A DNA stretch of 40,000 bases, taken from contig NZ_KK073768.1 of NCBI RefSeq assembly GCF_000582685.1, forward strand, positions 2,308,074 through 2,348,073. The letters run 5' to 3'. The stretch comes from [Scytonema hofmanni] UTEX 2349 (GTDB taxonomy: Bacteria > Cyanobacteriota > Cyanobacteriia > Cyanobacteriales > Nostocaceae). The notes beneath the pieces are model-generated. The model was not told the origin of the DNA. It did no database searches and saw nothing but the letters and a program-made list of their open reading frames with translations. The translations under genes were made by a program, and so were the position numbers. Shown one piece after another: positions 3 to 34,600 of the stretch. The stretch's first letter is position 1. Every line of letters starts with the position of its first letter.

Positions 3-1481
3 ATTTCTGATTATAGAGCTACTACTAGTGGTGGACCTAACTTTGCTTATGATTTATGTGTACGCAAAGTTACTTTAGAGCAGCGTTTAAGCTTAGACCT
101 CAGTAGCTGGGAATTAGCCTTTAATGGAGCAGAAGCAATTAGAGCAGATACTTTAAAGGCATTTACAGAAGCTTTTGAACCCTGTGGGTTTCGTAGAACC
201 GCCTTCTATCCTTGTTATGGTATGGCAGAAACTACCCTGTTAGTATCAGGAGGAGAGAAGGAGGATGTGCCAGTTGTTTATTCATTAGATCGAGATGCTT
301 TGAGACGAGGAGTGGCGATCGCTACTCCAAATCCGCAAGAAGAACAAACAACACAATTAGTAGTAGGGTGTGGACACTCTTGGGAGGAGGAAACTATACG
401 GATTGTGAACCCAGAAACATTAGTGACTTGTTTAGATTGCCAAGTCGGTGAAATTTGGGTGGCAGGTCCTCATGTAGCTCAAGGTTATTGGAATCGGTCT
501 ACACAGACAGAAAAAACCTTTAATGCCTACACAACAGATACTCAAGAAGGTCCATTTCTCCGCACTGGTGACTTGGGATTTTTGCATGATGAAGAATTGT
601 TTGTTACAGGACGCATCAAAGATGTAATTATCATCCGAGGTCGTAACCATTATCCCCAAGATATTGAACTGACAGTAGAGAAAAGTCATCCAGCACTGAA
701 CCCCGGTAGCGGTGCAGCTTTTAGTGTAGAAATTAACGGTGAAGAAAGGTTAGTTATTGCTCAAGAAGTAAAACGTAATTATTTACGAAACCTCGATGTC
801 AATGAAGTAGCTACAACCATTCGTAGAGCAGTATCGCAGGAACATGAATTACAGTTATACGCTGTGGTATTGTTGAAAACAGGAAGTATCCTCAAAACTT
901 CCAGTGGGAAAATTCAACGTCAAGCTTGTCGAACTTCATTTTTAAACAATACTTTGAGTGTGGTAGGTCTGTGGAAGTTAGAAGATGAGTTATTAGAAGA
1001 CCAAACATTATCAACCACATCTGCATCAAACTCGGCTCATACTTTAAAAAAATCTCAATCTAATTTGACATCACAACCTCTAACTGGTAGTTCTAAATAC
1101 AATTTGGATTCTATCTTGAATTGGATTGAAACATGGTTAGCTAAAAAATTTAAAATACATCCTCATCAAATAGATACTAGTCAATCTTTTGCAGATTTTG
1201 GTATGGATTCAGTTATGTCTGTGGAATTTTCTCAAGCATTAGGAGATTGGTTAGAAATTCCGATAGAGGCAGCTATACTTTGGAAATTCTCCACAATTGA
1301 ATCTTTAGGAAAATATTTAATTACTGAATTACAATTTACCAAACCCTCTTCTTCACAGCTACAATCCCAGCCTCAACAGGAAACTTTATCAGCACTCAAT
1401 CAAATTTCTCAAACAGAAATTGAGTCATTAATTAATCAAGAAATATCAGCATTAGAAAAAATATTGGAGAAAGGGCAATGA
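3..1481 (+). CDS. Fatty acyl-AMP ligase (FAAL; 5' end lies off-window) fused to an acyl carrier protein (loading didomain)
   Basis: Frame 3 is open from nt 3, upstream of the ORF-track Met at 222: ISDYRATTSGGPNFAYDLCV..AFNGAEAIR..FYPCYGMAETTL. It continues with TGDLGF, GRIKDVIIIRGRNHYPQDIE and SSGKIQR, which are adenylate-forming core motifs of the FAAL type. The C-terminal carrier domain carries FADFGMDSVMSVEF. The stop TGA at 1479-1481 overlaps the next ATG (ATGA). Confidence 0.85.
   Translation: MSDYRATTSGGPNFAYDLCVRKVTLEQRLSLDLSSWELAFNGAEAIRADTLKAFTEAFEPCGFRRTAFYPCYGMAETTLLVSGGEKEDVPVVYSLDRDALRRGVAIATPNPQEEQTTQLVVGCGHSWEEETIRIVNPETLVTCLDCQVGEIWVAGPHVAQGYWNRSTQTEKTFNAYTTDTQEGPFLRTGDLGFLHDEELFVTGRIKDVIIIRGRNHYPQDIELTVEKSHPALNPGSGAAFSVEINGEERLVIAQEVKRNYLRNLDVNEVATTIRRAVSQEHELQLYAVVLLKTGSILKTSSGKIQRQACRTSFLNNTLSVVGLWKLEDELLEDQTLSTTSASNSAHTLKKSQSNLTSQPLTGSSKYNLDSILNWIETWLAKKFKIHPHQIDTSQSFADFGMDSVMSVEFSQALGDWLEIPIEAAILWKFSTIESLGKYLITELQFTKPSSSQLQSQPQQETLSALNQISQTEIESLINQEISALEKILEKGQ
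315..322. repeat. HIP1 (highly iterated palindrome GCGATCGC), one of 29 copies counted by eye
   Basis: Copy start positions: 315, 2756, 3040, 5078, 6497, 7342, 9051, 9788, 14376, 15712, 17092, 17529, 19729, 23256, 24057, 26607, 26735, 27468, 28792, 31344, 34113, 34733, 35205, 35619, 35700, 36732, 37714, 38007, 39861. Fewer than 1 copy of a given octamer is expected by chance in 40 kb. Confidence 0.9.
1107..1332 (+). other. Domain: ACP (loading, fused to FAAL)
   Basis: DSILNWIETWLAKKF..FADFGMDSVMSVEF. The phosphopantetheine Ser codon is 1209-1211. Confidence 0.85.
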
Positions 1482-4400
1482 ACAATATTTATGAATCTAA
1501 TCAAGAAAAATCAGTTTCATTACAACGTTTACTTAATGCCCTTAAACAAGCTCGTACTCAAATTGAAAATACGGAACGTCAAAAGACTGAACCAATAGCT
1601 ATTATTGGCATGGGGTTTCGTTTTCCAGGTGGTGTTAAAGACCAAGAGACATTTTGGCAACTATTACATCATGGTGTAGATGCTATTACAGAAATTCCCC
1701 AAAATCGCTGGGATGTTGATCGCTACTATGATCCCAATCCTGACGCTTCCGGGAAAATATACACTCGTTATGGTGGGTTTTTGGATCAGGTAGACCAGTT
1801 TGATCCCCAATTTTTCGGCATTGCTCCCCGTGAAGCAATGGACATGGACCCACAACACCGACTACTGTTAGAAATTACCTGGGAAGCCCTAGAAAACGCT
1901 GCCATAGCACCAGAACGCCTCAAAGGTACTCAAACAGGCTTGTTTGTGGGCATGAGTTCAGATGATTATTCCCAACTCAGTTTAAATTTTGATGATTTAA
2001 ATAGCTTAGATGCTTATAGAGGTTTAGGGAGCGCACGTAGTATTGCCGTTGGTCGTTTGGCTCATATCCTAGATTTACAGGGCTTGGTGCTGCAACTAGA
2101 TACATCCTGTTCATCTTCCTTACTAGGGATTCATTTAGCCTGTCAAAGCTTGCGTTCTGGTGAATGCAATCTAGCTTTAGCAGGTGGTGTAAATTTGATG
2201 CTTTCTCCCATTAATACCATTTTAGGCTGTAAACTTCGGGCTTTATCAGTTGATGGACGTTGTAAAACTTTTGATGCTGGGGCTGATGGTTATGTCAGAG
2301 GAGAAGGTGGTGGCATAGTCGTACTTAAACGGTTGTCTGATGCTATAGCTGATGGTGACAACATTCTAGCTTTAATTCGCGGGTCTGCTGCTAACCATGA
2401 CGGTAAAAGTAATGGATTAACCGCCCCTAATGGTGCTGCTCAAGAAGTAGTAATTAAGCAAGCTTTAGCTAATGCTAGGGTTACACCAGAACAAATTCAA
2501 TATGTAGAGGTACATGGGACGGGTACACCCTTGGGAGATCCGATAGAAGTTTTGGCATTAGGACAAGTTTTGTGTCAAAATCGCTCCAAACAAGAACCAT
2601 TAATGATTGGTTCACTCAAAACTAACTTTGGTCACTTGGAAGCAGCTGCGGGTATAGCCAGTTTAATTAAAGTGGTTTTATGTTTGCAAAACAAACAAAT
2701 TCCACCCCATTTGCACTTTCAAAATCCTAATCCTTATATACCTTGGGATAAATTAGCGATCGCTATTCCTACTCAGTTAACTGCTTTATCAGCACAAGAT
2801 AGTCCACATTTAGCCGGAGTTAGTTGCTTTGGCATGAGTGGCACAAATGTACATCTAATTGTCGAAGCAGCAGCAAATCAAGTTCAAATTGAAAATCATC
2901 AAGATTCACAACTGCATCTATTGACACTCTCAGCTAAAACAGAATCAGCTTTGCAAGATTTAGCCCAAAAGTATCAAGATTTTTTAACTAAGCATCCCTC
3001 AGCCTCTATTGCCGATGTATGTTTTACTGCTAACACAGGGCGATCGCACTTTGACCACCGATTAGCGATTATTGCCCAATCACATCAGCATTTACAACAA
3101 CAATTAAATTCATTCATTCAACAAACACCAGCTACAGAAGTAATTAGCGGTCAACTGACGAGCAAAAAACGCCCAAAAATTGCCTTTCTCTTCACCGGAC
3201 AAGGTTCGCAATATGTGGGGATGGGCAAAGAACTATACCAAACTCAACCAGTTTTCCGCCAATGCTTAGACCAATGCGCTCAAATTCTCAGTTCTGAGCT
3301 AGATTATCCCCTATTGGAAATCTTGTATGCAGACACAACTGAAAATCCCCTGATTCATCAAACAGCCTATACCCAACCTGCCTTATTTGCTTTAGAATAT
3401 GCCCTAGCTCAACTCTGGATTTCTTGGGGAGTGCAACCAGATATAGTTATGGGTCACAGTGTCGGTGAATACGTTGCTGCTTGTGTAGTCGGTATTTTTA
3501 CCTTAGAAGACGGACTCAAACTGATTACACAACGGGGACGGTTAATGCAACAGTTACCAGGTGGGGAAATGGTAGCAGTAATGGCATCAGCCGCACAAGT
3601 ACAAGCAATTATTGACAACTACAAAAACCAAATAGCAGTCGCTGCCTACAACACACCCAACAGCGTAGTAATTTCCGGTACAACCGCAGCCATCAAAGAT
3701 GTTTGTCAACAATTAACACAACAGGGAATCAAAACCAAACCTTTACAAGTATCTCACGCTTTCCACTCCCCTTTGATGCAGCCAATGTTGGCAGAATTTG
3801 CCGAAATAGCAGCAAAAATTACATACCATCAACCGCAAATTCCCTTAATTTCCAACCTCACAGGACAACCAGCCACAGCAGAAATAGCAACTGGACAATA
3901 CTGGGTAAATCATGTCACCCAACCAGTGAAATTTGCTGAGAGTGTCCACACATTACATCAACTGGGTTATAAAATTTGGTTAGAAATTGGCTCTCAGCCA
4001 GTATTGTTAGGAATGGCACGTCAACAGATTCCCGAAACAGAGCATTTAACCCTACCAAGTTTATATCCCAAACTGCCAGACTCACTACAATTATTGAGAA
4101 CTTTAGCTACACTATATGTATATAGTGTAGCAATTCATTGGCAGGATTTTCACAAAGTTAACCCCAACTGTCAGAAAATTCCCTTACCTACCTATCCATT
4201 TCAAAGACAACGCTACTGGATTAATAGTAATTCAGAAGTAAAAAATCAATCCAGCAATTCCTTATCCTATCAAGGTAAAAAACGGCATCCAATTTTAGGT
4301 TATCGTTTGACTGATTTAGCCGTCCTACCCCATACTTACATTTGGGAAACACCAATAGATGAATTTTACCTTTCTTGGTTAAAAGACCATCAGGTCTGGG

Positions 4401-4717
4401 ATACCGTGATTATGCCCCATACAGGATATTTGCAAATAGCTTTTGAAGCTACTCAGGAAGCTTTTAATCAACCCTGGAATAACATTAGTAATTTAAAACT
4501 GTACTATCCTCTGTTCTTGTCCACACAAGAGGAACAAAAAATACAGGTGATTCTCTCGCCACTATCAGATAGTAAAATGTTGCTTCAGGTGTATGGCTGT
4601 CGGCTGAGTAAGTCCTCCTCTGCATCAGAGTGGACTTTATACGCAGATGCACAAGTTTCATCTTCAGCAACCCATCCAGAACCAACAGCAAATTTACCGA
4701 TATTAACAAAAATATGA
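1478..4717 (+). CDS. Type I PKS, KS-AT plus the N-terminal hot-dog half of a DH (module 1, part a)
   Basis: 1079 aa. KS motifs: [51 protein letters not shown] motifs: [25 protein letters not shown]-half motifs: HPILGYRL and [13 protein letters not shown] (HxxxGxxxxP-like). The protein ends ..PILTKI* directly at the LLM start. Confidence 0.9.
1589..2866 (+). other. Domain: KS (PKS module 1)
   Basis: [23 protein letters not shown] has its Cys codon at 2108-2110. HGTGTPLGD and [10 protein letters not shown] supply the two catalytic His. The domain ends at GTNVHLIVE. Confidence 0.9.
3179..4020 (+). other. Domain: AT (module 1), malonyl-CoA type
   Basis: [16 protein letters not shown] has its Ser codon at 3458-3460. 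The HAFH motif ([10 protein letters not shown]) is the malonate-specific signature. The post-AT linker ends at [12 protein letters not shown] (~4223). Confidence 0.85.
4286..4714 (+). other. Domain fragment: DH N-terminal hot-dog half
   Basis: HPILGYRL (4286). The catalytic-His motif [13 protein letters not shown] has its His codon at 4388-4390. The fragment ends with [12 protein letters not shown], equivalent to the end of the first hot-dog, followed by a short linker and a stop. Confidence 0.75.
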
Positions 4718-5757
4718 AATTTGGTTTAATGTTCTTTGCTAGTAGCGAAGATGCTTTAGTGGGTGATAAATATAGTCTGGTGATTGAAAGTGCTAAATTT
4801 GCTGATCAACATGGCTTTTCTAGTATTTGGACACCAGAACGACATTATACTCAATTTGGTAGCCTCTACCCTAATCCGGCGGTATTAAATGCGGCACTAG
4901 CCAGGGAAACTCAACAGATTCGCTTGCAAGCAGGTAGTGTGGTGATGCCTTTGCATCATCCCCTGGAAATAGCCGAAGCATGGGCTTTAGTAGATAATTT
5001 GTCAAATGGCAGGGTGGGAATATCCTTAGCATCTGGTTGGAATCCCAGCGATTTTGCTACTTGTCCCCAAAAGTATAGCGATCGCCAGCAAACCGTTTTT
5101 ACCAATTTAGAAATACTGCAAAAACTCTGGCAAGGGGAATCTCTGAAAATTACCGACGGCAAAGGACAACCAGCAGAAATTCGTATTTATCCTACCCCTA
5201 TACAGCCTCAACTTCCCATTTGGATCACCGCAGCAGGTAATCCTCAAACATACATCAAAGCCGGAGAAATCGGGGCAAACCTGTTAACACACCTACTGGA
5301 TCAAGAAGTAGAAACCCTCGCAGAGAAAATATCTCTCTACCGTCAAGCTAGAGCTAAGTATGGTCACGATCCAGAAGCGGGTATAGTTTCACTCATGTTA
5401 CATACCTTTGTCGGTCAAGACTTCGAGCAAGTACGAGAACAAGCCAGAATCCCTTACTGTAATTATCTCAAAGCTAACATTGAACTGCTCAAAGGACTAG
5501 CTCAAAGTCGGGGGCATGATGTAGATATTACTAAATTACCTGAGCGAGACTTAAAGGAATTTGTTAACTTTTTATATGACCGCTTTGCTATCTCTAGAGG
5601 CTTAATCGGTACTCCTGAAACTTGTCAAAAGTTACTAGAACAGCTAGACGGCATTGGAATTGATGAAGTAGCTTGTTTATTAGATTTTGGTTTAAGTAAA
5701 GAACTTATTCTCCAACATTTACTAGACCTGAATCAACTACGAGAAAATTACAATCAT
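4714..5757 (+). other. Domain: luciferase-like monooxygenase LLM-1 (inserted between the DH halves)
   Basis: [71 protein letters not shown]. Paralogous to LLM-2 and LLM-3. Matches my recollection of the natural-product LLM domain family (TIGR04020-like). Confidence 0.8.
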
Positions 5758-21068: not shown

Positions 21069-21128
21069 TATAGATTTTAATTTACTTGAGAATCTTTTGA
21101 ATAAATTTAGTAAAATTGGCAGGAAAAT

Positions 21129-27900: not shown

Positions 27901-30272
27901 AAATCAAAATTTATCGTCAGGCTTGGCAACAAAAAGGACATCCGGGTAATGGTCATATTACTTTGATGCTGCATACCTTTGTCGGTGATGACGAAGATAC
28001 AGTGCGGGAGCAAGTGCGTCTACCTATGTATAATTATTTAGAGCAATCAATGGGGCTGATTCAAAAGATGCTCAAAGGGACGAAATTTGAAAGCCAAGTT
28101 AATGAATTTGCCCAAGAAGACCGAAATACCCTGCTATCCTTTGCCTTTGAGCGTTACTTTAACAGTAGTGGCTTATTGGGAACTACTGCCAAATGCTTAC
28201 AGATGATTGACGATCTCAAAGCGATCGGCGTTGATGAAGTAGGATGTTTAATTGACTTTGGGGTAGATGTTGACGCTGTATTATCTAGCTTAGACAAACT
28301 CAATCAAGTTAGAGAACTTAGTAATAATATTAATGCTGAAGATTACACTATTTTGAGCCAAATTCAGCGACATCAAGTATCCCATCTCCAATGTACGCCT
28401 TCTTTAGCCAGAATGCTGACATTAATGCCTCATGGGATTGAGAGCTTAAATTGTTTGCAATATTTAATGTTAGGTGGAGAAGCATTACCACTAAATTTAG
28501 TGAAACAGTTGGGAATATCCATTGATGCCCATATTTACAATATGTATGGACCAACTGAAGCCACAATTTGGTCATCTACAGCCATTGTGGATGGTAAAGA
28601 TAGTGAAACCACGATTACCATCGGTAAACCTATAGCTAACACCCAGTTTTATATTTTAGATCAACAGTTAAATCCTGTACCTGTGGGAGTTCCAGGGGAA
28701 CTGCATATTGGGGGTACGGGTTTAGCTAGAGGATATTTCCAGCGTCCTGAGTTGACAGCAGCAAGATTTATACAGAGTCCTTTTAGGGAAGGCGATCGCC
28801 TCTACAAAACCGGTGATTTAGCTCGCTACCTACCTGATGGAAATATTGAATTTCTGGGTCGCGTTGATTATCAAGTCAAACTGCGAGGATTCCGCATTGA
28901 ACTAGGAGAAATTGAAACAGCACTGAGTCAACATCCCCAAATTCAGCAAGCTGTGGTAGTCCTAGACGGAACACAGGAAAATCAGCGCCTTGTCGCTTAC
29001 ATTGTCCCCCATTCCCCAGTATCTGCACCCACATCCACTGAGTTAAATCAATGTCTGTCGAAGAAACTACCAGATTACATGGTGCCGAGCATTTTTGTCC
29101 AGCTTGACCAAATGCCCTTAACCCCCAACGGCAAAATTAACCGTCGTGCATTACCAACCCCCTCACAACGAAGCCCCTCACCCAAATATCTCCCCCCCCG
29201 CACTCCTGTAGAACGTCAACTAGCTCAAATTTGGTCTGAGGTTTTAAATTTAGATTGGATAGGCATTCGGGATAATTTCTTTGAACTGGGTGGACGCTCT
29301 CTACTAGCAGTACAATTAATATCGCGCATTCAAAAAGTATTTGGTCAACAATTACCCCTAGCTAGTCTTTTCCAAGCACCAACCATTGAAAATTTAGCTC
29401 GGCAAATAGTTAATGCAGACAGTAAACAGCACTCATCCTGTTTAGTACCCATTCAACTCCAAGGCTCAAAACTGCCCCTGTTTTTCATTCCCGGCTCAGG
29501 GGGTAACGTGATTCAATTCTATGAATTTTCACGTTGTTTAGGATTAGATCAACCCTTCTATGGTTTACAACCCCAAGAATGGGATCATGAATCTCAACCT
29601 TTACATCGGGTTGAAGACATGGCATCTCAGTACTTAGTCGCGATTCAAACCATCCAGCCCCAAGGTCCCTACCTTTTAGGTGGTCACTCTTTAGGGGGTA
29701 AAGTTGCCTTTGAAATAGCCAGACAACTGCTCAAACGAGGACAAGAGATTCGACTTCTAGCCATAGTTGATGCTACAGCACCCCTACCAGTCCAGCAGGT
29801 TTCCTCACCCTCAACTTGGAGTAATGCTCAATGGTTATATGCTATTGCCGAGGCAGCTGGGCAAGCATTAGGTATCACGCTGGATATTTCCCAGGAATTA
29901 TTGTATGGCTTATCACCAGAAGAGCAGTTTAAATACTTACAAAGCCAGTTTGTGCAAAATGGAATTTTAGCTCCCCAAGACAGTGAAACCCAGTTAAAGA
30001 AACTAATTCAATTGACAAAAATTCACCACACAAGTGCAGTTAATTATCAATGTTCTGAACAATTAGCATTGCCAATTATACTCTTTAAGTCGGCTGAACA
30101 AACAAATACAATCATGTTTGAAAGTAACTTATTACTGAATGAGCCTAAACTGGGTTGGGATCGAGTTTCAACACAACCTGTTATCTGTCATGTAATTCCA
30201 GGTAGCCATTATTCTATTATGGCTAACCCTTATGTCAAAGAATTAGCAGCACATTTACAGGGTTACTTATAA
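21966..30272 (+). CDS. NRPS: C-A-T-C-A(interrupted by LLM)-T-TE (NRPS modules 3-4, termination)
   Basis: 2768 aa. Motifs in order: FPLSFAQERLWFLNQLEG, HHIISDAWS; LAYVIYTSGSTGQPKGV..NAYGPSEATVC; FFELGGHSLLATQV; HHIIADGWS; LAYIIYTSGSTGQPKGV..ISFDISILELFW. The LLM then follows (MQFSLFYFAN..PERHF..GRVGVSFASGW). The A domain resumes with NMYGPTEATIW..GELHIGGTGLARGY..YKTGDLARY..PNGKINR. The protein ends with FFELGGRSLLAVQL and a TE carrying GGHSLGG. Confidence 0.9.
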   Translation: MLLNSQETFVFPLSFAQERLWFLNQLEGSKATYNMFAAIGLNGNLNVQVLEQALNEIVQRHEVLRTSFQTVDGQGVQIINPEVNFQLRCVDLQNLSDNEREITVQEWITKEANTPFDLSQAPLMRATLLQTDIQEYFLLVTMHHIISDAWSVGIVIKEISVIYKALIQGQEHTLPELEIQYADFAEWQREWLQGDRLNQQLIYWKNYLAGVPPVLELPTDYPRPPVQTFQGQNQRFEIGADLSVALKKLAKENGCTLFMVLLAAFATLLYRYSGQEDIVVGTPVGNRSQPELESLIGFFVNTLVVDAKFDQELNFTEILEQVRQGVLENYAHQDVPFEKIVEELQPERNLSHTPIFQVWFVLQNTPTETLQLPDITLTPLPFETQVAKFDLTLSMSETKSGLRGVWQYSTDLFDAATIARMVEHFQVLLEAIASHPQEKINLLPLLTEKERQKILNEWNNTAISYPQHLCIHQIFEEQVKLTPDAVALVFGEEQLTYQQLNNRANQLAHHLQNMGVGSEVLVGLCVNRSFDMIVGLLAILKAGGAYVPLDPNYPEERLAYIIEDAAVSVLLIQESLEENLPPSYALVVYLDRDWEEIATQSCENIISEVQSHNLAYVIYTSGSTGQPKGVLVTHQGIGNLALAQQKLFKVENNSRVLQFASFGFDASVSEIFMSLVCGARLVLAPAQKLMPGLDLQQAIAHYGITHVTLPPSALAILPPGQMPTLKQVIVAGEACPEPLARIWSKDRHFFNAYGPSEATVCATVAEVDLKPETDTKSIVAIGSPIANTQIYILDNSLQPVSVGVPGEIYISGVGLARGYLNQPQLTAAKFIENPFREGRLYKTGDLARYLPNGNIEFLGRIDRQIKIRGFRIELGEIEARLSQHPQVQEATVITREDPSGNQRLVAYLVSKNQDLTPSELRQFLKERLPDYMVPSIFVMLDAMPLTPNGKIDHRNLPSPEQDLTEQNNFLAPRTPTEQKIADIFAAVLKIEQVGIYNNFFELGGHSLLATQVISRFREAFEIELPLETLFKSPTVAELDVIIQQWLQNNSATDSPLTQPLPAVVAVPREDNTVLPLSWGQERLWFLDQLEGSSAAYNISMAVQLQGKLNVDALEQAFKEIVQRHQVLRTRFDTVDGNPVQVIETKSKFNLFRDNLQLISTDKLEVEVKKRLTQEAQKPFDLTHSPLIRATLLQIADNDYILLVTMHHIIADGWSVRVMVQELSVLYDAFVQGLPSFLPPLAIQYADFVHWQRQWLQGEILERQLSYWKTYLLGAPPLLELPTDYPRPGVQTFRGAQQSFTLSTELISQLQQLTQSTDTTLFMLLCSAFLVLLHRYSSQDDIVLGTVMANRNRTEIEPLIGLFVNTLVLRTQFEADCTFVDILKQVQQGLLTGYTNQDVPFEKIVEVLQPERNLSHSPLFQVMFSLQNASSASLSLADVISTPLKPEILTAKFDLTLSMVETESGVSGVCEYNTDLFKAETITRMIAHYQVLLTGVVANVQERISKLPLLTPEEEKQLLVAWNDTQVSYSQDHCLHQQFEQQVEKTPDAIALVFQNQQLTYRELNQRANQLANYLQRQGVSSETLVGICVERSLEMMIGLLGILKAGAAYIPLDPHHPQERLAFILSDTQMPILLTQERLQTKLPTHGAKVICLDTNWTDIAQENQANLGISVKGENLAYIIYTSGSTGQPKGVMIEHRQVANFFVGMDQRLNVEDDYDTTKTWLAVTTISFDISILELFWTLARGFKVIIQQEQQKTIAATVPTSRMPEKQMQFSLFYFANENNTGNHQGENLYKLLIEGAKFADQHGFTAVWTPERHFHEFGGIYPNPAVASAAIAAVTKQVQIRAGSVVLPLHQEIRVAEEWAFVDNLSNGRVGVSFASGWQPNDFVLSPENYHRRKSLLVEQIETVRKLWRGEFITLKNGNGIPTEIRTFPKPIQAELPTWLTAAGSPETFRLAGELGLNVLTHLLGQSIEEISAKIKIYRQAWQQKGHPGNGHITLMLHTFVGDDEDTVREQVRLPMYNYLEQSMGLIQKMLKGTKFESQVNEFAQEDRNTLLSFAFERYFNSSGLLGTTAKCLQMIDDLKAIGVDEVGCLIDFGVDVDAVLSSLDKLNQVRELSNNINAEDYTILSQIQRHQVSHLQCTPSLARMLTLMPHGIESLNCLQYLMLGGEALPLNLVKQLGISIDAHIYNMYGPTEATIWSSTAIVDGKDSETTITIGKPIANTQFYILDQQLNPVPVGVPGELHIGGTGLARGYFQRPELTAARFIQSPFREGDRLYKTGDLARYLPDGNIEFLGRVDYQVKLRGFRIELGEIETALSQHPQIQQAVVVLDGTQENQRLVAYIVPHSPVSAPTSTELNQCLSKKLPDYMVPSIFVQLDQMPLTPNGKINRRALPTPSQRSPSPKYLPPRTPVERQLAQIWSEVLNLDWIGIRDNFFELGGRSLLAVQLISRIQKVFGQQLPLASLFQAPTIENLARQIVNADSKQHSSCLVPIQLQGSKLPLFFIPGSGGNVIQFYEFSRCLGLDQPFYGLQPQEWDHESQPLHRVEDMASQYLVAIQTIQPQGPYLLGGHSLGGKVAFEIARQLLKRGQEIRLLAIVDATAPLPVQQVSSPSTWSNAQWLYAIAEAAGQALGITLDISQELLYGLSPEEQFKYLQSQFVQNGILAPQDSETQLKKLIQLTKIHHTSAVNYQCSEQLALPIILFKSAEQTNTIMFESNLLLNEPKLGWDRVSTQPVICHVIPGSHYSIMANPYVKELAAHLQGYL
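21990..23320 (+). other. Domain: C (NRPS module 3), HHxxxDA variant
   Basis: FPLSFAQERLWFLNQLEGSKATYNM. HHIISDAWS (from 22392) has Ala in place of the usual Gly of HHxxxDG. Confidence 0.85.
23370..24830 (+). other. Domain: A (NRPS module 3), hand-derived code DASTIAAVCK -> Tyr-type
   Basis: FGFDASVSEIF, HVTLPPS, VIVAGEA, NAYGPSEATVC, GEIYISGVGLARGY, YKTGDLARY, PNGKIDH. The code matches 9 of 10 positions of the Stachelhaus Tyr code DASTVAAVCK. Confidence 0.65.
24880..25090 (+). other. Domain: T/PCP (NRPS module 3)
   Basis: FFELGGHSLLATQV. The Ser codon is 24981-24983. Confidence 0.9.
25185..26510 (+). other. Domain: C (NRPS module 4)
   Basis: LPLSWGQERLWFLDQLEGSSAAYNIS. HHIIADGWS has its codons from 25581. 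Confidence 0.9.
26560..27278 (+). other. Domain fragment: A (NRPS module 4), N-terminal part through core A4
   Basis: LTYRELN, LAYIIYTSGSTGQPKGV, TTISFDISILELFW (A4). The domain is then interrupted by LLM-3. Confidence 0.85.
27279..28335 (+). other. Domain: luciferase-like monooxygenase LLM-3, inserted into the A domain between cores A4 and A5
   Basis: MQFSLFYFANENN..FTAVWTPERHF..RAGSVVLPLHQE..GRVGVSFASGWQPNDF..LMLHTFVG..GCLIDFG. Confidence 0.85.
28336..29160 (+). other. Domain fragment: A (NRPS module 4), C-terminal part. The full code DILQMGMIWK points to Gly.
   Basis: HLQCTPS, LMLGGEA, NMYGPTEATIW, GELHIGGTGLARGY, YKTGDLARY, GRVDYQVKLRGFRIELGE, PNGKINR. The code matches 8 of 10 positions of the Stachelhaus Gly code DILQLGLIWK. 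Confidence 0.7.
29200..29410 (+). other. Domain: T/PCP (NRPS module 4)
   Basis: FFELGGRSLLAVQL. The Ser codon is 29298-29300. Confidence 0.85.
29440..30269 (+). other. Domain: type I thioesterase (TE)
   Basis: LFFIPGSGGNV. GGHSLGG has its Ser codon at 29688-29690. LAIVDATAP carries the Asp and IPGSHYSIM the His. Confidence 0.85.
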
Positions 30273-30278
30273 TTGAAG

Positions 30279-30466: not shown

Positions 30467-30478
30467 TCCAGATAAATC

Positions 30479-32089
30479 ATGGGAGATAAATTTATGTCAG
30501 GTGATAAGCTATACCTCAAACAGAACGTAGTTTTAGAACCGTTAGTTAATCAGTGGCACGCCTGGTCTTATTTGTTGGCTCCTTCCACGGCAGCCATGTA
30601 TATTGCTAACTCACACTTAAAGATTATGCAGTCTTTTGTATCTGCACCCAAGGTACATATTTCGGCTCTCAAATCTCCGAAAATGATGGCTGGTCCTTTT
30701 GTCAATCATGATGAAAGTGCTGTTGGTGATATTAAAAATTTGATTGAACATTTCATGCAAGATCAAGCATATATGCTAGAACTGGCGGAAGCCATTAAAA
30801 CTCTCAATCAATGTTTAGAAACAGAGGCTAGTGGTTTTTCTTTAGAAGGAATGTACTCCCAAATTCCTCAACCCCTACAAGGATTTGTGGAGCTCAATTA
30901 TGATTTAAATAATCACCCGGCAATACGTTTTATGGAGGGGCTACTATATCATAGTATTTATGGCAATGAAGTCGCTCAAAGTGTGGCGATGTACGTTGTT
31001 GACCAAGACCAACGATCTTTTATTTTTAGCACTCCTAGACTCAAGCAAGCTGATAATTTACACCTGCAAATTCCCTTTAAAGACAAGATTTTAGACCAAC
31101 TGGCAAAAATGAAATATGTTCCGGGTGATGTACAGGAAATAAAAGAGAAATTAAATATTGATGCTCAAGATGAAGGACTCTTCTCCAGCTTCTTTACTCA
31201 AGATGCTCCCCACAAGCAACCTATTCAGTATGATCAAGATGGGGTGAGAATACGTTATTTTGGTCATGCTTGTCTGCTGATAGAATCAAAAGACGTGAAT
31301 ATTCTTTGCGATCCACTCATCAGTTATGATTATCCAAGTGCAAGCGATCGCTACACTTATGCTGATTTACCTGCCATTATTGACTATATTGTTATTACAC
31401 ATCATCACCATGACCATTGTGTGATCGAAACATTGTTACAGCTAAGGCATCGAGTTAAAACCGTGATTGTTCCCAAAAACAACGGCGGAAGTCTTGCTGA
31501 CCCTGGGATGAAACTGGTTTTACAAAGTATTGGATTTAAGGAGGTTCGAGAAATTGATGAGATGGAACAGATAGAGATTCCAGGAGGTAGCATTACTGGG
31601 TTGCCATTCTTAGGTGAACATGGAGATTTAAACATTAGAAGCAAAATTGCTTACTTGATCACCTTGTTAGGTCGCTCGGTGATGGTTTCAGCAGATTCTA
31701 GAATTTGTGATCCTCACATTTGTAAAAATATTCACCATTCAGTCAATAAGATTGATGCTTTATTTTTAGGATTGCAATCTGATGGAGCTCCCTTAAGTTG
31801 GGCTTACGGTTCATTGTTATGTAAACCTTTGAGCCGCAAAATAGACCACGATAGACAAGTAGGAGGAGCTAACTTTGATATTGCTAAGAGTATGGTTGAA
31901 CAATTACAACCTAAATCTGTGTACGTTTATGCAATGGGGTATGAACCTTGGCTCAGTTATATGATGGTTCCTGACTATGAAGGTCCGATGGCAGAGTCGA
32001 ATAAATTAATTGATGAATGTAACAGTCAGGGAATTTTTGCAGAGCAATTGTTTGGCTACAAAGAAATTTTGATGGATACTATTGCCTAA
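30479..32089 (+). CDS. Two-domain protein with an N-terminal helical domain and a C-terminal metallo-beta-lactamase fold. Candidate CmlA-like non-heme diiron beta-hydroxylase acting on carrier-bound amino acids.
   Basis: 536 aa. The MBL fold begins at IRYFGHACLLIESKDVNILCDPL. The HxHxDH motif is ITHHHHDHC (codons 31400-31417, residues ~308-313). Length and domain order match my recollection of CmlA (~530 aa, HxHxDH near residue 305-310). An alternative start is ATG 30494, which is preceded by GGAGA. Confidence 0.5.
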   Translation: MGDKFMSGDKLYLKQNVVLEPLVNQWHAWSYLLAPSTAAMYIANSHLKIMQSFVSAPKVHISALKSPKMMAGPFVNHDESAVGDIKNLIEHFMQDQAYMLELAEAIKTLNQCLETEASGFSLEGMYSQIPQPLQGFVELNYDLNNHPAIRFMEGLLYHSIYGNEVAQSVAMYVVDQDQRSFIFSTPRLKQADNLHLQIPFKDKILDQLAKMKYVPGDVQEIKEKLNIDAQDEGLFSSFFTQDAPHKQPIQYDQDGVRIRYFGHACLLIESKDVNILCDPLISYDYPSASDRYTYADLPAIIDYIVITHHHHDHCVIETLLQLRHRVKTVIVPKNNGGSLADPGMKLVLQSIGFKEVREIDEMEQIEIPGGSITGLPFLGEHGDLNIRSKIAYLITLLGRSVMVSADSRICDPHICKNIHHSVNKIDALFLGLQSDGAPLSWAYGSLLCKPLSRKIDHDRQVGGANFDIAKSMVEQLQPKSVYVYAMGYEPWLSYMMVPDYEGPMAESNKLIDECNSQGIFAEQLFGYKEILMDTIA

Positions 32090-32170: not shown

Positions 32171-33043
32171 ATGAAAAATTGGATTTTCCCGGTTTCCGAT
32201 GTTCCAGAATTAAGAGGAGAAGAAGCTTTAGCTGTCAATTTTTTTGAGCAGACCCAACCTGTAGTTCTTCGCAACTATGTTGATAATGTAGAAAAGTTGG
32301 CACCTCATGAGGAAATTTGGAATGGAATAACCGGACAGGTAACAGTTATTTCCCCAGATAATCCGGTTGTAACTGCTCGTGCTGGAAAGGCTGGAAACAA
32401 TTTAATTGTAGAAATGAGCCTCACGGAAATTTTTGAACGGATATCAGGAATTGGAAATCACAAATTTATATTAGGAGAAGGTGAGCGATATTACATTTTT
32501 GGCAACCTCGCACCCGCAAAACTGATAGATCAAGTCCGTTGGCCAAATGAAGCCATGACAAAGGATAGATCCATGTACATTACTGCTACTGGCGTGCTAA
32601 CAAAGGCACATTATGATAGACACGCAGGCTTTTTAATGCATATATATGGGAGAAAACACGCTTTAATTTTATCACCCAAATACTTCCAACAAATTTACCC
32701 AGTCCATGACTTAGCTACAGGTGAGGACCGACGTTCTTTGGTTAATCTTCGCTCTCCAGATTTGAATGCTCATCCTAGAGTAGTAGAATTAGAGGCTATG
32801 GAAACCATACTTGAACCAGGGGATATGCTCTTTATCCCCTCAAACTGGTGGCATGAAATCGAAGCACTAGAGGTAAGTATATCATTACGTGCCAATGTAG
32901 AGAATAAGCTATTTTCTAATTTAGAAGAAATTTTGTCTTACCTGGAAAAGTCCAGTGAACTTATCAGTAAATTGCCATCAGAACAGCGTATTTTTGTATC
33001 GGAACGCACAAGAGTAGGACTAAATCAGCTAAACAAACAATAA
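32171..33043 (+). CDS. JmjC / cupin-8-type Fe(II)/2-oxoglutarate-dependent hydroxylase (predicted)
   Basis: 290 aa. TKAHYDRH supplies the HxD of the facial triad. It is followed by GRKHALILSP, EPGDMLFIPSNWWHEIEALEVSISL (distal His) and a C-terminal helical tail. The pattern matches the FIH/JMJD-like cupin_8 layout. Confidence 0.6.
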   Translation: MKNWIFPVSDVPELRGEEALAVNFFEQTQPVVLRNYVDNVEKLAPHEEIWNGITGQVTVISPDNPVVTARAGKAGNNLIVEMSLTEIFERISGIGNHKFILGEGERYYIFGNLAPAKLIDQVRWPNEAMTKDRSMYITATGVLTKAHYDRHAGFLMHIYGRKHALILSPKYFQQIYPVHDLATGEDRRSLVNLRSPDLNAHPRVVELEAMETILEPGDMLFIPSNWWHEIEALEVSISLRANVENKLFSNLEEILSYLEKSSELISKLPSEQRIFVSERTRVGLNQLNKQ

Positions 33044-33244
33044 AAAGTGGGCGTTGCTGATGTTAGGGATGAAAGTAAATCCAAAACCTTGTAAATCCGC
33101 GAATTAGCCATTTTAATTTTCACTCCCCTATCCAAGACATGTAAATCGTTCAAACTCTTATGCGATAAATGTTTGGGCTTATCTTAGTGCCATTCGTCAA
33201 TAGGCTTTGAGACGCGCTAACCCTGCAATTATGCTTTAATATTT

Positions 33245-34600
33245 ATGACTAACCAACCCTCAAGTGTTACACAAACTCCTGCTTTGAGTGAAATGAAAGT
33301 TTTTATTATGATTTGGCTAGGTCAAATCATATCTAGGATAGGTTCTGGTATGACTAGCTTTGCTTTTGATGTCTGGGTTTACCAGCATACTAATTCTATC
33401 ACTCAATTTGCTTTCCTAACCCTTGCTATTACTCTTCCCGGTTTTTGCATTTTTCCGATTGCTGGTAGTGTTGTTGATCGTTGGAATCGTCGCTGGATAA
33501 TGTTGATTAGTACAATCTGTTCTAGCTTATGTATTCTAACTGTTGGTATTCTATTGATACTGGGACATCTAGAAGTTTGGCATATTTATCTTGCAGTCGC
33601 TGGAAAGTCAATTTTCTCAACATTTAGCTCAACAGCTTTTCGTGCATCTATTGTGTTAATGGTTCCTACAAACAAACTAGGGCGTGCTAGTGGATTCACT
33701 CAAGCTACAGATTCAATAGCCCGCTTAGTGTGTCCAGCTTTAGGGGGTATTATCTTAGGAATTTTCAAATTGAAAGGTGTAGTTTTACTGGATTTTATTA
33801 CTTTTATCCTGGCTATTATTCCTCTTGTTCTTGTAGATATCCCGGAACTTTCACACAAGGATAATTTGCTAATTGATGCCCAGAATACATCTATTCTTTC
33901 AGGAATAAAACAGGGATGGGATTATTTAATCAATAGACCAGGAATACTAACGTTGATACTTATCCGAACCATTTATAATGCAGCTATAGGGGCAGCACTA
34001 ATTCTAGCCACACCACTTTTATTGATCTTAACCACACCGGGAAGTTTAGGTTTTCTTCTTTCCCTGGCAGGAAGTGGTATGCTTATAGGAATTATCTATT
34101 TAGGTATTGTAGGCGATCGCCAAGAAGAAAATTTAGTAAGAGTGATATTTATATCGATCCTCTTAAGTTCTACTGCTTTAGTTACAGGGGGTTTGCGTCC
34201 TTCTTTGATATTATTTACCATTTCTGGTTTCTTTTTTGCTTTAGGCATTCCCTTGGTTAACGGATGTGTTCAAATCATATTGCAAAAAAAAGTTGCCCCT
34301 CACATTCAAGGTAGAATTTTCTCACTTAATCATACAATCTCTATGCTCTTTCCACCATTGGTAGCAATTGCCATTGGACCTATTGCAGATAAAATTTTAG
34401 AACCTTTAATGGACTTTAATGGACCTTGGTCTCAAGGAATTGGTCAAATTATCGGCTCAGGTCCTGGTCGAGGAATTGCTCTTTTGTTCATTTTAATAGG
34501 ATTACTTACATTGTTTTCCAATTTAATAGCATACCAATATGAACCGTTAAGAAAACTAGAAAGCGAATTGCCGGATGAAATAGAGTTTATAAGTTCATAA
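33245..34600 (+). CDS. MFS transporter (MFS_3 / EntS-like exporter family), probable product efflux
   Basis: 451 aa and very hydrophobic, with roughly 12 predicted TM stretches. GSVVDRWNRRWIM lies after TM2, which is typical of the EntS-like MFS_3 family. The gene is co-directional with the cluster. Confidence 0.75.
   Translation: MTNQPSSVTQTPALSEMKVFIMIWLGQIISRIGSGMTSFAFDVWVYQHTNSITQFAFLTLAITLPGFCIFPIAGSVVDRWNRRWIMLISTICSSLCILTVGILLILGHLEVWHIYLAVAGKSIFSTFSSTAFRASIVLMVPTNKLGRASGFTQATDSIARLVCPALGGIILGIFKLKGVVLLDFITFILAIIPLVLVDIPELSHKDNLLIDAQNTSILSGIKQGWDYLINRPGILTLILIRTIYNAAIGAALILATPLLLILTTPGSLGFLLSLAGSGMLIGIIYLGIVGDRQEENLVRVIFISILLSSTALVTGGLRPSLILFTISGFFFALGIPLVNGCVQIILQKKVAPHIQGRIFSLNHTISMLFPPLVAIAIGPIADKILEPLMDFNGPWSQGIGQIIGSGPGRGIALLFILIGLLTLFSNLIAYQYEPLRKLESELPDEIEFISS

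Follow-up and report, generated by a model that had tools for sequence, protein, structure and literature searches.

The window, by which we mean the whole 40,000-nucleotide stretch of DNA analysed here, contains an intact, horizontally patchy FAAL-PKS-NRPS cluster that we predict, with fair though not strong confidence, to make a hitherto undescribed linear lipopeptide amide, small and highly oxygenated. The domain order, gene boundaries and adenylation (A) domain codes of this assembly line were read directly from Pfam matches, motifs and the sequence, and the gene calls are identical between two independent assemblies. As the first-pass annotation had proposed, there are two PKS modules, both malonate-specific judging by the HAFH motif found in both ATs in a motif search, and Pfam and motif searches of these modules gave no cMT or ER domain. 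The window matches a filamentous cyanobacterium, Scytonema hofmannii FACHB-248, and conserved counterparts of the cluster occur in Calothrix, Cylindrospermum and Dolichospermum flos-aquae. The earlier failure to match it to a described lipopeptide was repeated in our search of the literature (MIBiG lay outside that search), where no published product was found. We see the cluster as a good lead for compound discovery rather than new enzymology, because each of the three ways in which an oxygenase is built into it has a precedent in a studied pathway.

Three built-in monooxygenase domains

The presence of three luciferase-like monooxygenase (LLM) domains starting at positions 4714, 11928 and 27279, all of which are Met codons, was borne out, as were their four shared motifs: every domain has a single copy of each of PERH(F/Y), AGSVV(M/L)PLH, GRVG(I/V)S(L/F)ASGW and CL(I/L)DFG. 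PF00296 matches gene C at residues 1-317 (1.3e-48), gene D at 1217-1508 (2.8e-45) and gene F at 1772-2090 (2e-44), and TIGR04020, the NCBIfam profile for MupA/Atu3671 secondary-metabolite LLMs, gives 488 bits for LLM1, 526 for LLM2 and 519 for LLM3, all roughly two-fold above its cut-off of 244 bits. By these profile matches all three inserts are members of the MupA/Atu3671 family of FMN-dependent monooxygenases. They had been called paralogous, but they are not close paralogues. Specifically, they are mutually only 47-50% identical, whereas identity reaches about 65% between LLM1 and the LLM of OcfI and 65% between LLM2 and PuwE, and on this basis the host contexts look old and separately inherited. 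In the bootstrapped tree LLM1 and LLM2 each group with domains of their own context, in two distinct clades with good support, and the A-embedded LLMs are not resolved as one clade (12-30/100 bootstraps). The window encodes no flavin reductase, and the supply of reduced FMN must therefore fall to a housekeeping enzyme.

TIGR04020 also includes the trans-acting alpha-hydroxylases MupA (mupirocin) and OocM (oocydin), which have been shown to act on an ACP-bound beta-ketoacyl thioester; the alpha-hydroxylated product is then ketoreduced, and we take this chemistry as the model for LLM1 and LLM2. It should be noted that MupA is free-standing and serves a trans-AT PKS, whereas the LLMs in the window are covalent parts of cis-AT modules and of an A domain. 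MupA hydroxylates only the ACP-bound beta-keto thioester, with the KR acting afterwards, and rejects a beta-hydroxy substrate (PMC10952193).

The split first module

The loading and first extension functions are encoded by genes A, B and C, with the following features.

3..1481, + strand: 3' part of gene A, FAAL C-terminal region and ACP (Pfam AMP-binding, DIP2-like and PP-binding; the best NCBIfam matches are FAAL families)
1478..4717, + strand: gene B, with KS 1589-2719, AT 3185-4045 (HAFH, malonyl type) and the N-terminal DH hot-dog half 4286-4594 (Pfam, motifs)
4714..5748, + strand: LLM1, the N-terminal domain of gene C, which spans 4714-8358 (PF00296, TIGR04020, junction sequence)
5872..6378, + strand: C-terminal DH hot-dog half of gene C (PS-DH, residues 387-555; PF14765 6e-22, motif alignment)
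7135..8187, + strand: KR1 (7135-7668) and ACP (7984-8187) of gene C (Pfam, KR alignment)

Gene A in full encodes 760 residues and begins some 800 nt before the window does (positions 3721-6003 of locus L036, where integrase/XisA-like genes lie upstream of it), and its stop overlaps the start of gene B as ATGA (1478-1481). The PKS_DH_N match in gene B covers residues 937-1039 and includes the motif HxxxDxxxxP, which starts at nt 4388 and keeps the catalytic His; the protein ends 41 residues past this match. The TGA stop of gene B (4715-4717) and the ATG of gene C (4714-4716) form a second ATGA overlap in different frames. LLM1 had been described as lying between the two halves of a DH, and the flanking order is indeed as described, but the halves are on separate, translationally coupled ORFs rather than within one polypeptide. 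Natural single-chain DH_N-LLM-DH_C-KR-ACP proteins do exist (P0121-P0126), and the boundary might in principle be a sequencing frameshift within one continuous DH polypeptide. We consider this extremely improbable, as the same ORFs are found in both assemblies, an identical ATGA is present in four cyanobacterial genera, Calothrix, Cylindrospermum and Dolichospermum among them, and in Burkholderia ocfJ/ocfI, and the remaining members examined have gaps of 4-314 nt with the LLM always starting at Met1.

The split DH_N and LLM-DH_C module was found at 35 genome loci across phyla, and nearly all of them have DH_N immediately before an LLM match starting at query residue 1. A stop codon separates DH_N from the LLM Met in all 14 of the loci examined for it. 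LLM, PS-DH and KR are together in all 120 best protein matches, nearly all of which also have the ACP, and the same architecture is present in hundreds of uncharacterised proteins. It is, moreover, part of two synthases with known products, although the first-pass annotation knew it from no characterised synthase. In the occidiofungin line of Burkholderia contaminans and its relatives, OcfJ (FAAL-ACP-KS-DH_N) is followed by OcfI (LLM-DH_C-KR-ACP), which is annotated in print simply as a flavin-dependent monooxygenase. As in the window, this line starts with a FAAL and has a protein ending in DH_N before the LLM protein, but OcfJ has no AT and includes FAAL-ACP within the same protein. The pathway also differs in proceeding via a transaminase to a beta-amino acid and then to a cyclic glycosylated octapeptide, and in having no domain of the LLM2 or LLM3 type. 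The cyanobacterial counterpart is the cyanochelin B synthase on plasmid 2 of Leptolyngbya sp. NIES-3755, where BAU16016 (FAAL-ACP-KS-AT-DH_N) precedes CcsC (LLM-DH_C-cMT-KR-ACP). CcsC is 50% identical to the window protein over LLM and DH_C but has an extra cMT and is separated from BAU16016 by a 12-nt gap, with no overlap. Its LLM shares a clade with LLM1 and the LLM of OcfI (99/100 bootstraps).

Both products carry an alpha,beta-diol at the position matching the split module. Occidiofungin contains 3-amino-5,6,7-trihydroxystearic acid (PMC9792986), in which, by colinearity, the LLM would provide the C6 hydroxyl and the KR that at C7, and cyanochelin B carries a 2,3-dihydroxy-2-methylacyl unit (PMC12628792) made by an "Ox" domain and a KR. 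The beta-hydroxyl survives in both products, and the DH therefore does not dehydrate in these modules. The alternative is that the DH around LLM1 is active, giving no diol but a 2-enoyl chain that LLM1 epoxidises or hydroxylates, or a 2,3-diol that is dehydrated to a 2-oxoacyl chain. The catalytic His and the DxxxQ Asp are both kept in the window, Calothrix, Cylindrospermum, Dolichospermum and a Leptolyngbyaceae locus, and the Asp is at least 90% conserved among 88 family members. In the clade of the window, dehydration or a different DH-type reaction may therefore take place. LLM-family enzymes are also chemically versatile (PMC10952193), and an FMN-dependent Ox domain makes the alpha-keto groups of myxoglucamide (PMC13638107). 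However, motif alignment shows that the YGP motif is missing from the gene C half and from every other member compared, some of which have also changed the catalytic His to Tyr and the Asp to Glu, and alpha-hydroxylation of the MupA type needs the beta-keto group, which is present before the KR or DH can act. We consider an active DH unlikely. We infer instead that the two halves come together as a single double hot-dog fold, which has lost dehydrating activity and serves as a scaffold carrying LLM1. An AF2 model of an artificial fusion of the two ORFs (pLDDT 81.6, pTM only 0.56) places the DH halves on the CurK DH with a TM-score of 0.82 (normalised to the target; 688-column alignment) and the LLM on 6KET with 0.93. 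The assembled fold is probably also the interface between the B and C subunits. KR1 has the YAAAN motif and lacks the LDD motif, and gene C runs into gene D by a TAATG overlap (8356-8360).

The second module and its ketoreductase

Gene D has the order KS-AT-ACP-LLM2-KR-C-A-T-C-A-T (Pfam, motifs), and its PKS part is as follows.

8358..11492, + strand: KS 8466-9596, AT 10101-10973 (HAFH) and ACP at about 11274-11492, with the Ser of GADS at nt 11382 (Pfam, motifs)
11928..12977, + strand: LLM2, between the ACP and a KR-like domain (TIGR04020; PDB 6KET match)
13740..14288, + strand: KR2, KR-like (Pfam KR 6e-64, alignment)

The suggested resemblance to the Ox domains of puwainaphycin-type pathways was upheld, in that LLM2 matches the PuwE Ox domain (PDB 6KET) with 555 bits, the two form a clade with 100/100 bootstraps and the KS-AT-ACP-Ox order is shared. 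The Ox-aminotransferase modules of microginin and ralsolamycin are of the PuwE type. Where PuwE has a PLP aminotransferase after Ox, the window has a KR-like domain, so that a 2-hydroxy-3-hydroxy (or 3-oxo) unit is expected rather than 2-hydroxy-3-amino. The description of this domain as a KR needs to be qualified, since it has lost its catalytic Tyr. Specifically, KR2 has His in its place (codon 14193-14195), and the motif reads SNHAAAN in the window and three orthologues as against (G/N/S/H)Y(A/S)AAN in every other KR compared, including those of LLM-KR-ACP proteins without a DH. The substitution in all four orthologues makes the 3-hydroxyl of the predicted tetrol uncertain.

If KR2 were inactive or repurposed, the NRPS would receive a 2-hydroxy-3-oxo (ene-diol or reductone-like) 4,5-dihydroxyacyl unit, or some rearranged form of it, in place of a tetrol, a reading that we hold to be rather unlikely. 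The change is fixed in a domain that is otherwise 81-96% identical among the orthologues. On the other hand, the domain is evidently under constraint, the NADPH motif TGGLGALG, the LDD motif and the catalytic Lys, Ser and Asn positions are intact, and His could serve as a general acid. In addition, thioesters of the alpha-hydroxy-beta-ketoacyl kind are labile, a property remarked on for the product of MupA (PMC10952193). We therefore retain reduction by KR2 as the working assumption.

The NRPS modules and the racemase

14289..21068, + strand: NRPS part of gene D, with C, A1 (15951-17444), T, C, A2 (19185-20651) and T (Pfam, codes, motifs)
21129..21869, + strand: Asp/Glu-family amino-acid racemase (PF01177; TIGR00035 100.7 bits, cut-off 93.1 bits)
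21966..30272, + strand: gene F, with C, A 23388-24815 (Tyr), T, C, A 26553-29165 (Gly, interrupted by LLM3), PCP 29217-29405 and TE 29475-30257 (Pfam, codes)
27279..28325, + strand: LLM3, inserted in the Gly-coded A domain (PF00296 2e-44, TIGR04020 519 bits)

The A-domain codes, extracted against GrsA numbering, are DLTKVGHVGK (Asp) and DARHFSLMVK (residue X) in gene D and DASTIAAVCK (Tyr) and DILQMGMIWK (Gly, the last A domain) in gene F, in agreement with the earlier reading of the order as Asp, X, Tyr, Gly. The racemase gene directly follows the DARHFSLMVK module here and in loci L004 and L015, three independent loci in all, and eight loci with other codes lack it. This gene linkage ties it to the X module and not to the canonical Asp module. 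The DARHFSLMVK code presumably resembles that of microcystin McyB2, and together with the linkage this makes a racemase-supplied D-Asp-type acid the most likely identity of X. All relatives with DARH-type codes are uncharacterised.

The last module of gene F was said to have the arrangement of MtaG (myxothiazol) and MelG (melithiazol), and this stands as regards position: alignment to GrsA shows LLM3 inserted in a Gly-coded A domain, after core motif A4 and before A5, within a C-A(monooxygenase insert)-PCP-TE module. The likeness is positional and not phylogenetic, and the host differs in being a cyanobacterial lipopeptide line, but by analogy the predicted outcome is the same, a terminal carboxamide. 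The amide mechanism is reportedly a proposal from myxobacterial genetics, attributed to Silakowski 1999 and Weinig 2003. Partly for this reason we considered that LLM3 may not form an amide, the TE instead releasing a peptide with a terminal Gly or alpha-hydroxy-Gly, or another position being oxidised. Homologues of LLM3 embedded in A domains are abundant (50-58% identity), very numerous and diverse, with no one supported clade. Against this, the last module has the exact terminal-amide layout, and we regard release without amide formation as improbable and keep the carboxamide.

Accessory genes

The other genes that had been listed as co-encoded with the racemase were confirmed, as was the racemase itself, by profile matches.

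30479..32089, + strand: CmlA-like non-heme diiron beta-hydroxylase (CmlA_N 6.5e-89, HHHHDH motif present)
32171..33043, + strand: JmjC/cupin_8 2-oxoglutarate oxygenase (Pfam; HxD...H triad H147, D149, H228)
33245..34600, + strand: MFS transporter, the last cluster gene (MFS_1, MFS_3)

The CmlA-like protein matches CmlA (363 bits) and 8A90 (434 bits) in the PDB. Its gene (1611 bp) is about the size of that for OcfG (1617 bp), called a "hydroxylase" in the occidiofungin cluster, and tblastn found CmlA-like homologues in Burkholderia replicons. The best PDB relative of the JmjC protein is FIH (5e-17). The JmjC gene adjoins the cluster in Dolichospermum too, as does an orthologue of the MFS gene, the product of which is a probable exporter.

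An FIH-like hydroxylase that could make beta-hydroxy-Asp, one or two Asp-type residues and the front end shared with the cyanochelin B synthase (FAAL-KS-AT-DH_N / LLM-DH_C-KR-ACP) together raise the question of a cyanochelin-type siderophore, that is, an amphiphilic chelator with beta-hydroxy-Asp and alpha-hydroxy-acyl ligands. Indeed, iron binding by the peptide-adjacent alpha-hydroxyl is suspected in cyanochelin B (PMC12628792). However, neither a TonB-dependent receptor, an ABC importer nor other iron-uptake genes were found in the window, the 5 kb preceding it or the flanks of the Dolichospermum cluster, while the cyanochelin B locus adjoins genes for a ferric-siderophore receptor and an ABC transporter. 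The downstream part of that pathway also differs, with a thiazoline, two beta-hydroxy-Asp residues and reductive release to ethanolamine. The window cluster has no Cyc domain, no reductase release and no second confirmed beta-hydroxy-Asp, of which cyanochelins B and C each have two. A siderophore of this type is thus an unlikely product, and we favour the lipopeptide amide.

Proposed pathway

Based on the domain order and the precedents above, we put forward a pathway, all chemical steps of which are inferred, to a predicted product 2,3,4,5-tetrahydroxyacyl-Asp-X-(beta-OH)Tyr-NH2, with X denoting the residue linked to the racemase. The FAAL would load a fatty acid onto its own ACP, from which the two-protein first module would extend it, gene B providing KS-AT and the first DH half and gene C providing LLM1, the second half, KR1 and the ACP. 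LLM1 would hydroxylate the alpha carbon of the beta-ketoacyl-ACP, with MupA as the biochemical precedent, and KR1 would then reduce the ketone to give a 2,3-dihydroxyacyl chain. The second module (KS-AT-ACP-LLM2-KR2) would repeat this chemistry on the next malonate to give a 2,3,4,5-tetrahydroxyacyl chain if KR2 is active, or a 2-hydroxy-3-oxo chain if the Tyr-to-His change abolishes its activity. The NRPS modules would add Asp, X, Tyr and Gly in order. By analogy with their relatives, the CmlA-like enzyme probably beta-hydroxylates the carrier-bound Tyr and an Asp is the probable hydroxylation target of the FIH-like JmjC enzyme. At the end of the line, we propose, the terminal Gly on the PCP is hydroxylated at its alpha carbon by LLM3, and the resulting hemiaminal collapses to release the C-terminal carboxamide. 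The glyoxylyl remnant would be removed by the TE, in line with the proposals for MtaG and MelG. The MFS protein would then export the product.

Organization of the gene cluster

Nine co-directional genes, designated A to I, occupy positions 3-34600 of the window and, from their Pfam content, specify a FAAL-PKS-NRPS assembly line in which three luciferase-like monooxygenase (LLM) domains are embedded. The N- and C-terminal hot-dog halves of the PKS dehydratase (DH) are written DH_N and DH_C.

3-1481, +, gene A: FAAL-ACP, 5'-truncated in the window
1478-4717, +, gene B: KS-AT-DH_N
4714-8358, +, gene C: LLM-DH_C-KR-ACP
8358-21068, +, gene D: KS-AT-ACP-LLM-KR-C-A-T-C-A-T
21129-21869, +, gene E: Asp/Glu-family racemase
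21966-30272, +, gene F: C-A-T-C-A(LLM)-T-TE
30479-32089, +, gene G: CmlA-like diiron hydroxylase
32171-33043, +, gene H: JmjC/cupin_8 oxygenase
33245-34600, +, gene I: MFS transporter

The racemase, CmlA-like protein, JmjC hydroxylase, and MFS protein that the first-pass annotation had listed as co-encoded are all present, as genes E, G, H, and I. The stop and start codons of genes A and B, and those of B and C, overlap as ATGA, and those of C and D as TAATG, so that genes A to D look translationally coupled. The Pfam scan found no flavin reductase gene in the window. Beyond position 34600 lie an opposite-strand TPR gene, a two-ORF transposase, a DUF711 gene, and an SH3 gene, which are outside the cluster. 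The transposase, of the IS type (35929-37241), consists of two overlapping ORFs (DDE_Tnp_1_assoc, then DDE_Tnp_1) and is probably frameshifted or decayed. Mobile-element genes lie on both sides of the cluster, this transposase downstream and integrase and XisA-like genes (locus L036, 505-2602) upstream of the FAAL gene, as seen where the latter is full-length at 760 aa. The F-G intergenic region (30277-30463) holds an element of about 190 nt that resembles a small repeat of MITE or hairpin type. It is framed by two inverted repeats, one nested in the other, of 22 nt (91% complementarity) and 29 nt (79%).

Three LLM domains, at least two of separate lineages

The three domains, LLM1 in gene C, LLM2 in gene D, and LLM3 in gene F, begin at 4714, 11928, and 27279 and share the motifs PERH(F/Y), AGSVV(M/L)PLH, GRVG(I/V)S(L/F)ASGW, and CL(I/L)DFG, exactly as first annotated. 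Profile searches place all three in the secondary-metabolite LLM subfamily, with TIGR04020 scores of 488, 526, and 519 bits for LLM1, LLM2, and LLM3 (curated cut-off 244.45 bits), each match spanning profile positions 1-341, and with PF00296 E-values of 1e-44 to 1e-48. For LLM1, the one modeled, the AF2 structure (pLDDT ~95) has the luciferase-like TIM-barrel fold and superposes on 6KET, the Ox domain of the puwainaphycin enzyme PuwE, with a TM score of 0.93 normalized to the target.

The proposal that one LLM family is used three times holds in that all belong to the TIGR04020 family, but not in the sense of a triplication. Pairwise identity among the three is 47-50%, and in a neighbor-joining tree LLM1 clusters with DH-associated LLMs that include OcfI and CcsC of the occidiofungin and cyanochelin B pathways (bootstrap 99/100), while LLM2 clusters with PuwE (100/100) and LLM3 falls among LLMs embedded in adenylation (A) domains, a set that is not resolved as a single clade (12-30/100). 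LLM1 and LLM2 at least are members of long-separated LLM lineages. The tree placement indicates that the cluster combines module types and was not built by duplicating one domain three times.

A dehydratase divided between two proteins

LLM1 had been described as lying between the two hot-dog halves of a PKS DH. The order DH_N, LLM, DH_C is as described, but the halves reside in separate genes: gene B ends in DH_N, and LLM1 begins at residue 1 of gene C and is followed by DH_C. This split is not an assembly artefact, since the same ORFs occur in two independent assemblies and the ATGA overlap of B and C is common to four cyanobacterial genera and Burkholderia. When one genome was scanned for each species, the split arrangement turned up in 35 loci, among them loci of Cyanobacteria, Burkholderia, Acidobacteriota, Bacteroidota, and several MAGs, nearly all with DH_N directly 5' of an LLM match that starts at query residue 1. 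A stop codon separates DH_N from the LLM start in 14 of the 14 loci whose junction was examined, with a 4-nt overlap or a gap of 4-314 nt. A protein search returned more than 2000 matches at E ≤ 1e-50, of which the best 120 all contain LLM, PS-DH, and KR domains, nearly all also an ACP, in 1100-1900 aa. In a smaller group (P0121-P0126), DH_N-LLM-DH_C-KR-ACP forms a single chain. At least one of these, P0121 from a soil metagenome (L042, 7062-11012), stands alone with no KS or AT upstream and with NRPS, glycosyltransferase, and PhyH oxygenase genes on its 3' side; the LLM of P0121 groups less closely with LLM1 than with the clade of LLM2 and PuwE.

The DH has lost its YGP motif throughout the family, LQE being found at that site in the window, and the clade to which the window belongs keeps both HxxxDxxxxP and DxxxQ. 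Elsewhere, the catalytic His is Tyr in the Plectonema (L003) and Cylindrospermum NIES-4074 (L014) members (DH_N/DH_C regions around position 10001), and the catalytic Asp is Glu in those from Plectonema, Cylindrospermum NIES-4074, Brasilonema, and Tolypothrix. For modeling, residues 926-1079 of gene B were fused by hand to residues 1-590 of gene C. The AF2 prediction of this DH_N-LLM-DH_C chain reached a pLDDT of 35 from the single sequence and 81.6 with an 88-sequence alignment (pTM 0.56), and its DH pieces together match the CurK DH with a target-normalized TM score of 0.82 over 688 columns (Foldseek, PDB). From the CurK and 6KET superpositions, the halves would therefore pack in the model as a single double hot-dog, and the LLM would protrude from the linker that joins the two hot-dogs. 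We read the DH as a scaffold, possibly the interface of two subunits; no description of such a DH-based docking or scaffold principle was found in the literature examined.

Precedents in occidiofungin and cyanochelin B

The first-pass annotation knew of no characterized synthase with an LLM within a DH. Two such pathways exist, with OcfJ/OcfI of occidiofungin and BAU16016/CcsC of cyanochelin B. In both, PKS_DH_N closes the first ORF and the second opens with an LLM followed by PS-DH, KR, and ACP, in the same Pfam order as genes B and C. The Burkholderia loci of our scan have ORFs of ~720, 951, 1311-1410, 966-1092, 4449-4569, and 3324-3375 bp, which fit the published ocfN, M, L, K, J, and I and identify them as the ocf cluster. 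OcfJ is FAAL-ACP-KS-DH_N and OcfI is LLM-DH_C-KR-ACP, with the same DH_N/LLM split as genes B and C. Unlike the cyanobacterial versions, however, OcfJ (L035, 5436-10004) has no recognizable AT between KS and DH_N, so that its module must be trans-loaded. The NAA2 residue of occidiofungin is 3-amino-5,6,7-trihydroxystearic acid (PMC9792986). Colinearity suggests that extension of a C12 starter by OcfJ/OcfI accounts for the C7 hydroxyl (beta, from the KR) and the C6 hydroxyl (alpha, from the LLM), and two later extensions for the C5 hydroxyl and the C3 amine.

The cyanochelin B locus (AP017310), found by tblastn of plasmids, encodes BAU16016 (FAAL-ACP-KS-AT-DH_N) and BAU16015, which is CcsC (LLM-DH_C-cMT-KR-ACP). 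Its product contains a threo-2,3-dihydroxy-2-methylacyl unit, credited by the authors to 'Ox', cMT, and KR (PMC12628792). The beta-hydroxyl is retained in both natural products, so the DH does not dehydrate, and from their structures we infer by analogy that the split module yields an alpha,beta-dihydroxyacyl unit. In the papers examined on the two pathways, the oxygenase appears only as 'Ox' or 'flavin-dependent monooxygenase'; our survey shows that each such box stands for an LLM within a DH divided between two proteins, an identity that is useful for annotation tools and for the design of polyketide synthases with added alpha-hydroxylation.

The cluster is not itself a cyanochelin cluster. 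A comparison with the cyanochelin B and C papers and with AP017310 shows a common front end and differences in the NRPS part, the mode of release, and the genes for iron uptake: cyanochelins call for two beta-hydroxy-Asp modules, a dedicated Asp hydroxylase, and adjacent iron-uptake genes, whereas the window has one canonical Asp code, and neither the window nor the flanks contain TonB or ABC uptake genes. The floridanemamide/pahayokolide and myxoglucamide pathways were also considered as examples of the split DH-LLM module and were set aside, as their arrangements are different.

The second module and its putative ketoreductase

LLM2 follows the sole ACP of its module and, as first annotated, resembles a puwainaphycin-type Ox domain, being 65% identical to that of PuwE; in matches to 6KET it scores 555 bits, LLM1 404 bits, and LLM3 426 bits. 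By this analogy, LLM2 probably works as the PuwE Ox domain does. In PuwE an aminotransferase comes after the Ox domain, whereas gene D has a KR in that place (PF08659, 6e-64), again as annotated, and Pfam detects no aminotransferase in the window, so the module is not of the beta-amino-acid-forming type.

This second KR, a putative reductase (KR2, 13740-14288), keeps its NADPH motif intact and also carries an LDD motif, but the catalytic Tyr of YAAAN is His (SNHAAAN, codon 14193-14195). The window shares SNHAAAN with all three orthologues, those of Calothrix, Cylindrospermum FACHB-282, and Dolichospermum, while Tyr is found in all other KRs compared, namely KR1 of gene C, OcfI, CcsC, and DH-less LLM-KR-ACP proteins. 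A search for homologues of ACP-LLM2-KR was dominated by the LLM-DH_C-KR-ACP family and carries little information on the ACP-Ox-KR order.

Peptide assembly, tailoring, and release

The A-domain codes were read against GrsA numbering, with a GrsA sequence that we assumed as reference and that gave DAWTIAAICK at the canonical positions. The resulting chain order of Asp, X, Tyr, and Gly agrees with the first reading.

A-domain codes of the NRPS modules
Gene D, A1: DLTKVGHVGK, Asp
Gene D, A2: DARHFSLMVK, X
Gene F, A1: DASTIAAVCK, Tyr
Gene F, A2: DILQMGMIWK, Gly

The X-coding DARHFSLMVK module is the last of its NRPS ORF with a racemase homologue directly downstream of it in the window (19185-21869), in Brasilonema CT11 (L004, ~18.8-20.9 kb), and in Phormidesmis (L015, ~18.7-21.0 kb), and no racemase was found in eight related loci with other codes. 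From this linkage, X is most likely the product of the racemase, a D-Asp-type acid. The cassette recurs in three otherwise unlike lipopeptide clusters. The code also resembles DARHVGIFVK, presumably that of the microcystin D-MeAsp module (McyB2), for which a text search found no paper. In a search of 1.84 billion proteins, in which giant multi-A-domain NRPSs ranked first, the DARH-coded relatives (NRPSs of Tumebacillus, Acidobacteriota, Cytophagales, and Uabimicrobium) are all uncharacterized.

Gene G is of the CmlA type (CmlA_N, 297.7 bits; CmlA structures, 363 bits), with the HxHxDH motif of its metallo-beta-lactamase fold present as HHHHDH; its exact protein sequence was not on record in an exact-protein look-up. 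Homologues occur in Burkholderia replicons and on a Ralstonia megaplasmid, and beta-hydroxy-Tyr is contained both in occidiofungin and in the ralsolamycin/ralstonin lipopeptides of Ralstonia, which is why we assign gene G, by analogy, to Tyr. The closest solved relative of gene H is the Asn/Asp beta-hydroxylase FIH, and its Fe-binding triad is intact; we tentatively suggest that it acts on an Asp.

LLM3 lies between A4 and A5 of the A domain coded DILQMGMIWK (canonical Gly code, DILQLGLIWK), in the final module, ahead of PCP-TE; in the GrsA alignment, the insertion follows FDISILE and precedes the position-278 region. The terminal modules of MtaG and MelG likewise have a monooxygenase between A4 and A5 and PCP-TE behind it, and the layout bears out the parallel drawn earlier with these enzymes. 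By analogy, the module is predicted to release the peptide as a primary amide. A-embedded LLMs with 50-58% identity to LLM3 are abundant across many phyla.

Hypothetical product

For MupA, the namesake of the family, alpha-hydroxylation is confined to the beta-keto thioester on the ACP and precedes the action of the KR (PMC10952193). If this chemistry is applied to the cluster, module 1 would give a 2,3-diol and module 2 a second diol. The product would be an Asp-X-Tyr peptide that carries a 2,3,4,5-tetrahydroxyacyl chain and at most two beta-hydroxylations and that leaves the line as the amide once Gly has been lost oxidatively. With a C12 starter and both beta-hydroxylations, the computed formula is C33H52N4O15 ([M+H]+ 745.3502), and the expected series varies from it in steps of C2H4 and of O. 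A bolder joint reading holds that the DH halves are no relic but a dedicated double hot-dog assembled in trans, which docks KS-AT to the LLM-KR-ACP subunit of alpha-hydroxylating cis-AT modules in hundreds of pathways across phyla, and that KR2, with its conserved Tyr-to-His change, performs non-canonical chemistry to give an unprecedented polyoxygenated (ene-diol or keto-triol) head in place of the plain tetrol. Taken as a whole, we consider it unlikely to be correct.

All three LLM contexts already occur in pathways whose products are known; the novelty lies in the combination of contexts, the predicted compound, and the odd KR2. The product was not found in the literature searched, the ADA-clade BGC survey included, and within that literature the original label of the cluster as an orphan is not contradicted. 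If expressed, the cluster should yield lipopeptide amides of a new family, small, acidic, and polyhydroxylated, from common Nostocales, including the bloom-forming Dolichospermum flos-aquae, in which most hybrid PKS-NRPS clusters are still without a product (ADA-clade BGC survey). With three uses of one oxygenase family in one assembly line, it is also a convenient system for host-context effects and opens the question of how a split pseudo-DH, a post-ACP site, and an A-domain insertion steer the same fold to different substrates.

Distribution of the cluster

Scytonema hofmannii FACHB-248 encodes a protein with 100% identity to that of gene C (GCA_014698435.1, contig JACJTA010000074), and the cluster architecture recurs in three other genera as far as the 10-kb flanks reach, that is, from the FAAL to the start of the NRPS, with LLM2 and KR2 included.

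Loci with the same architecture
Calothrix anomala FACHB-343: 94% identity
Cylindrospermum sp. FACHB-282: 77% identity
Dolichospermum flos-aquae (CP051206 and two metagenome contigs): 79% identity

In Dolichospermum, the JmjC and MFS genes are upstream of the FAAL gene, whereas in the window they are downstream. The FAAL of the complete Dolichospermum genome (CP051206) has 747 aa, but on the metagenome contigs it is called as a 497-aa piece (L039, 5284-6777) or as pieces of 275 and 497 aa (L040, 3835-6251), and some natural populations may carry the gene in disrupted form. A further family of clusters at ~60% identity, ordered FAAL-ACP-KS-AT-DH_N / LLM-DH_C-KR-ACP / NRPS, is found in Plectonema, Coleofasciculus, Tolypothrix, Scytonema, Xenococcaceae, and Cylindrospermum NIES-4074 (L003, L005, L006, L008, L013, and L014). 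The first amino acid code in these six loci varies (Thr, Ser, or Gln-like) and a Cys-coded module often comes next; they probably make further 2,3-dihydroxyacyl lipopeptides or siderophores.
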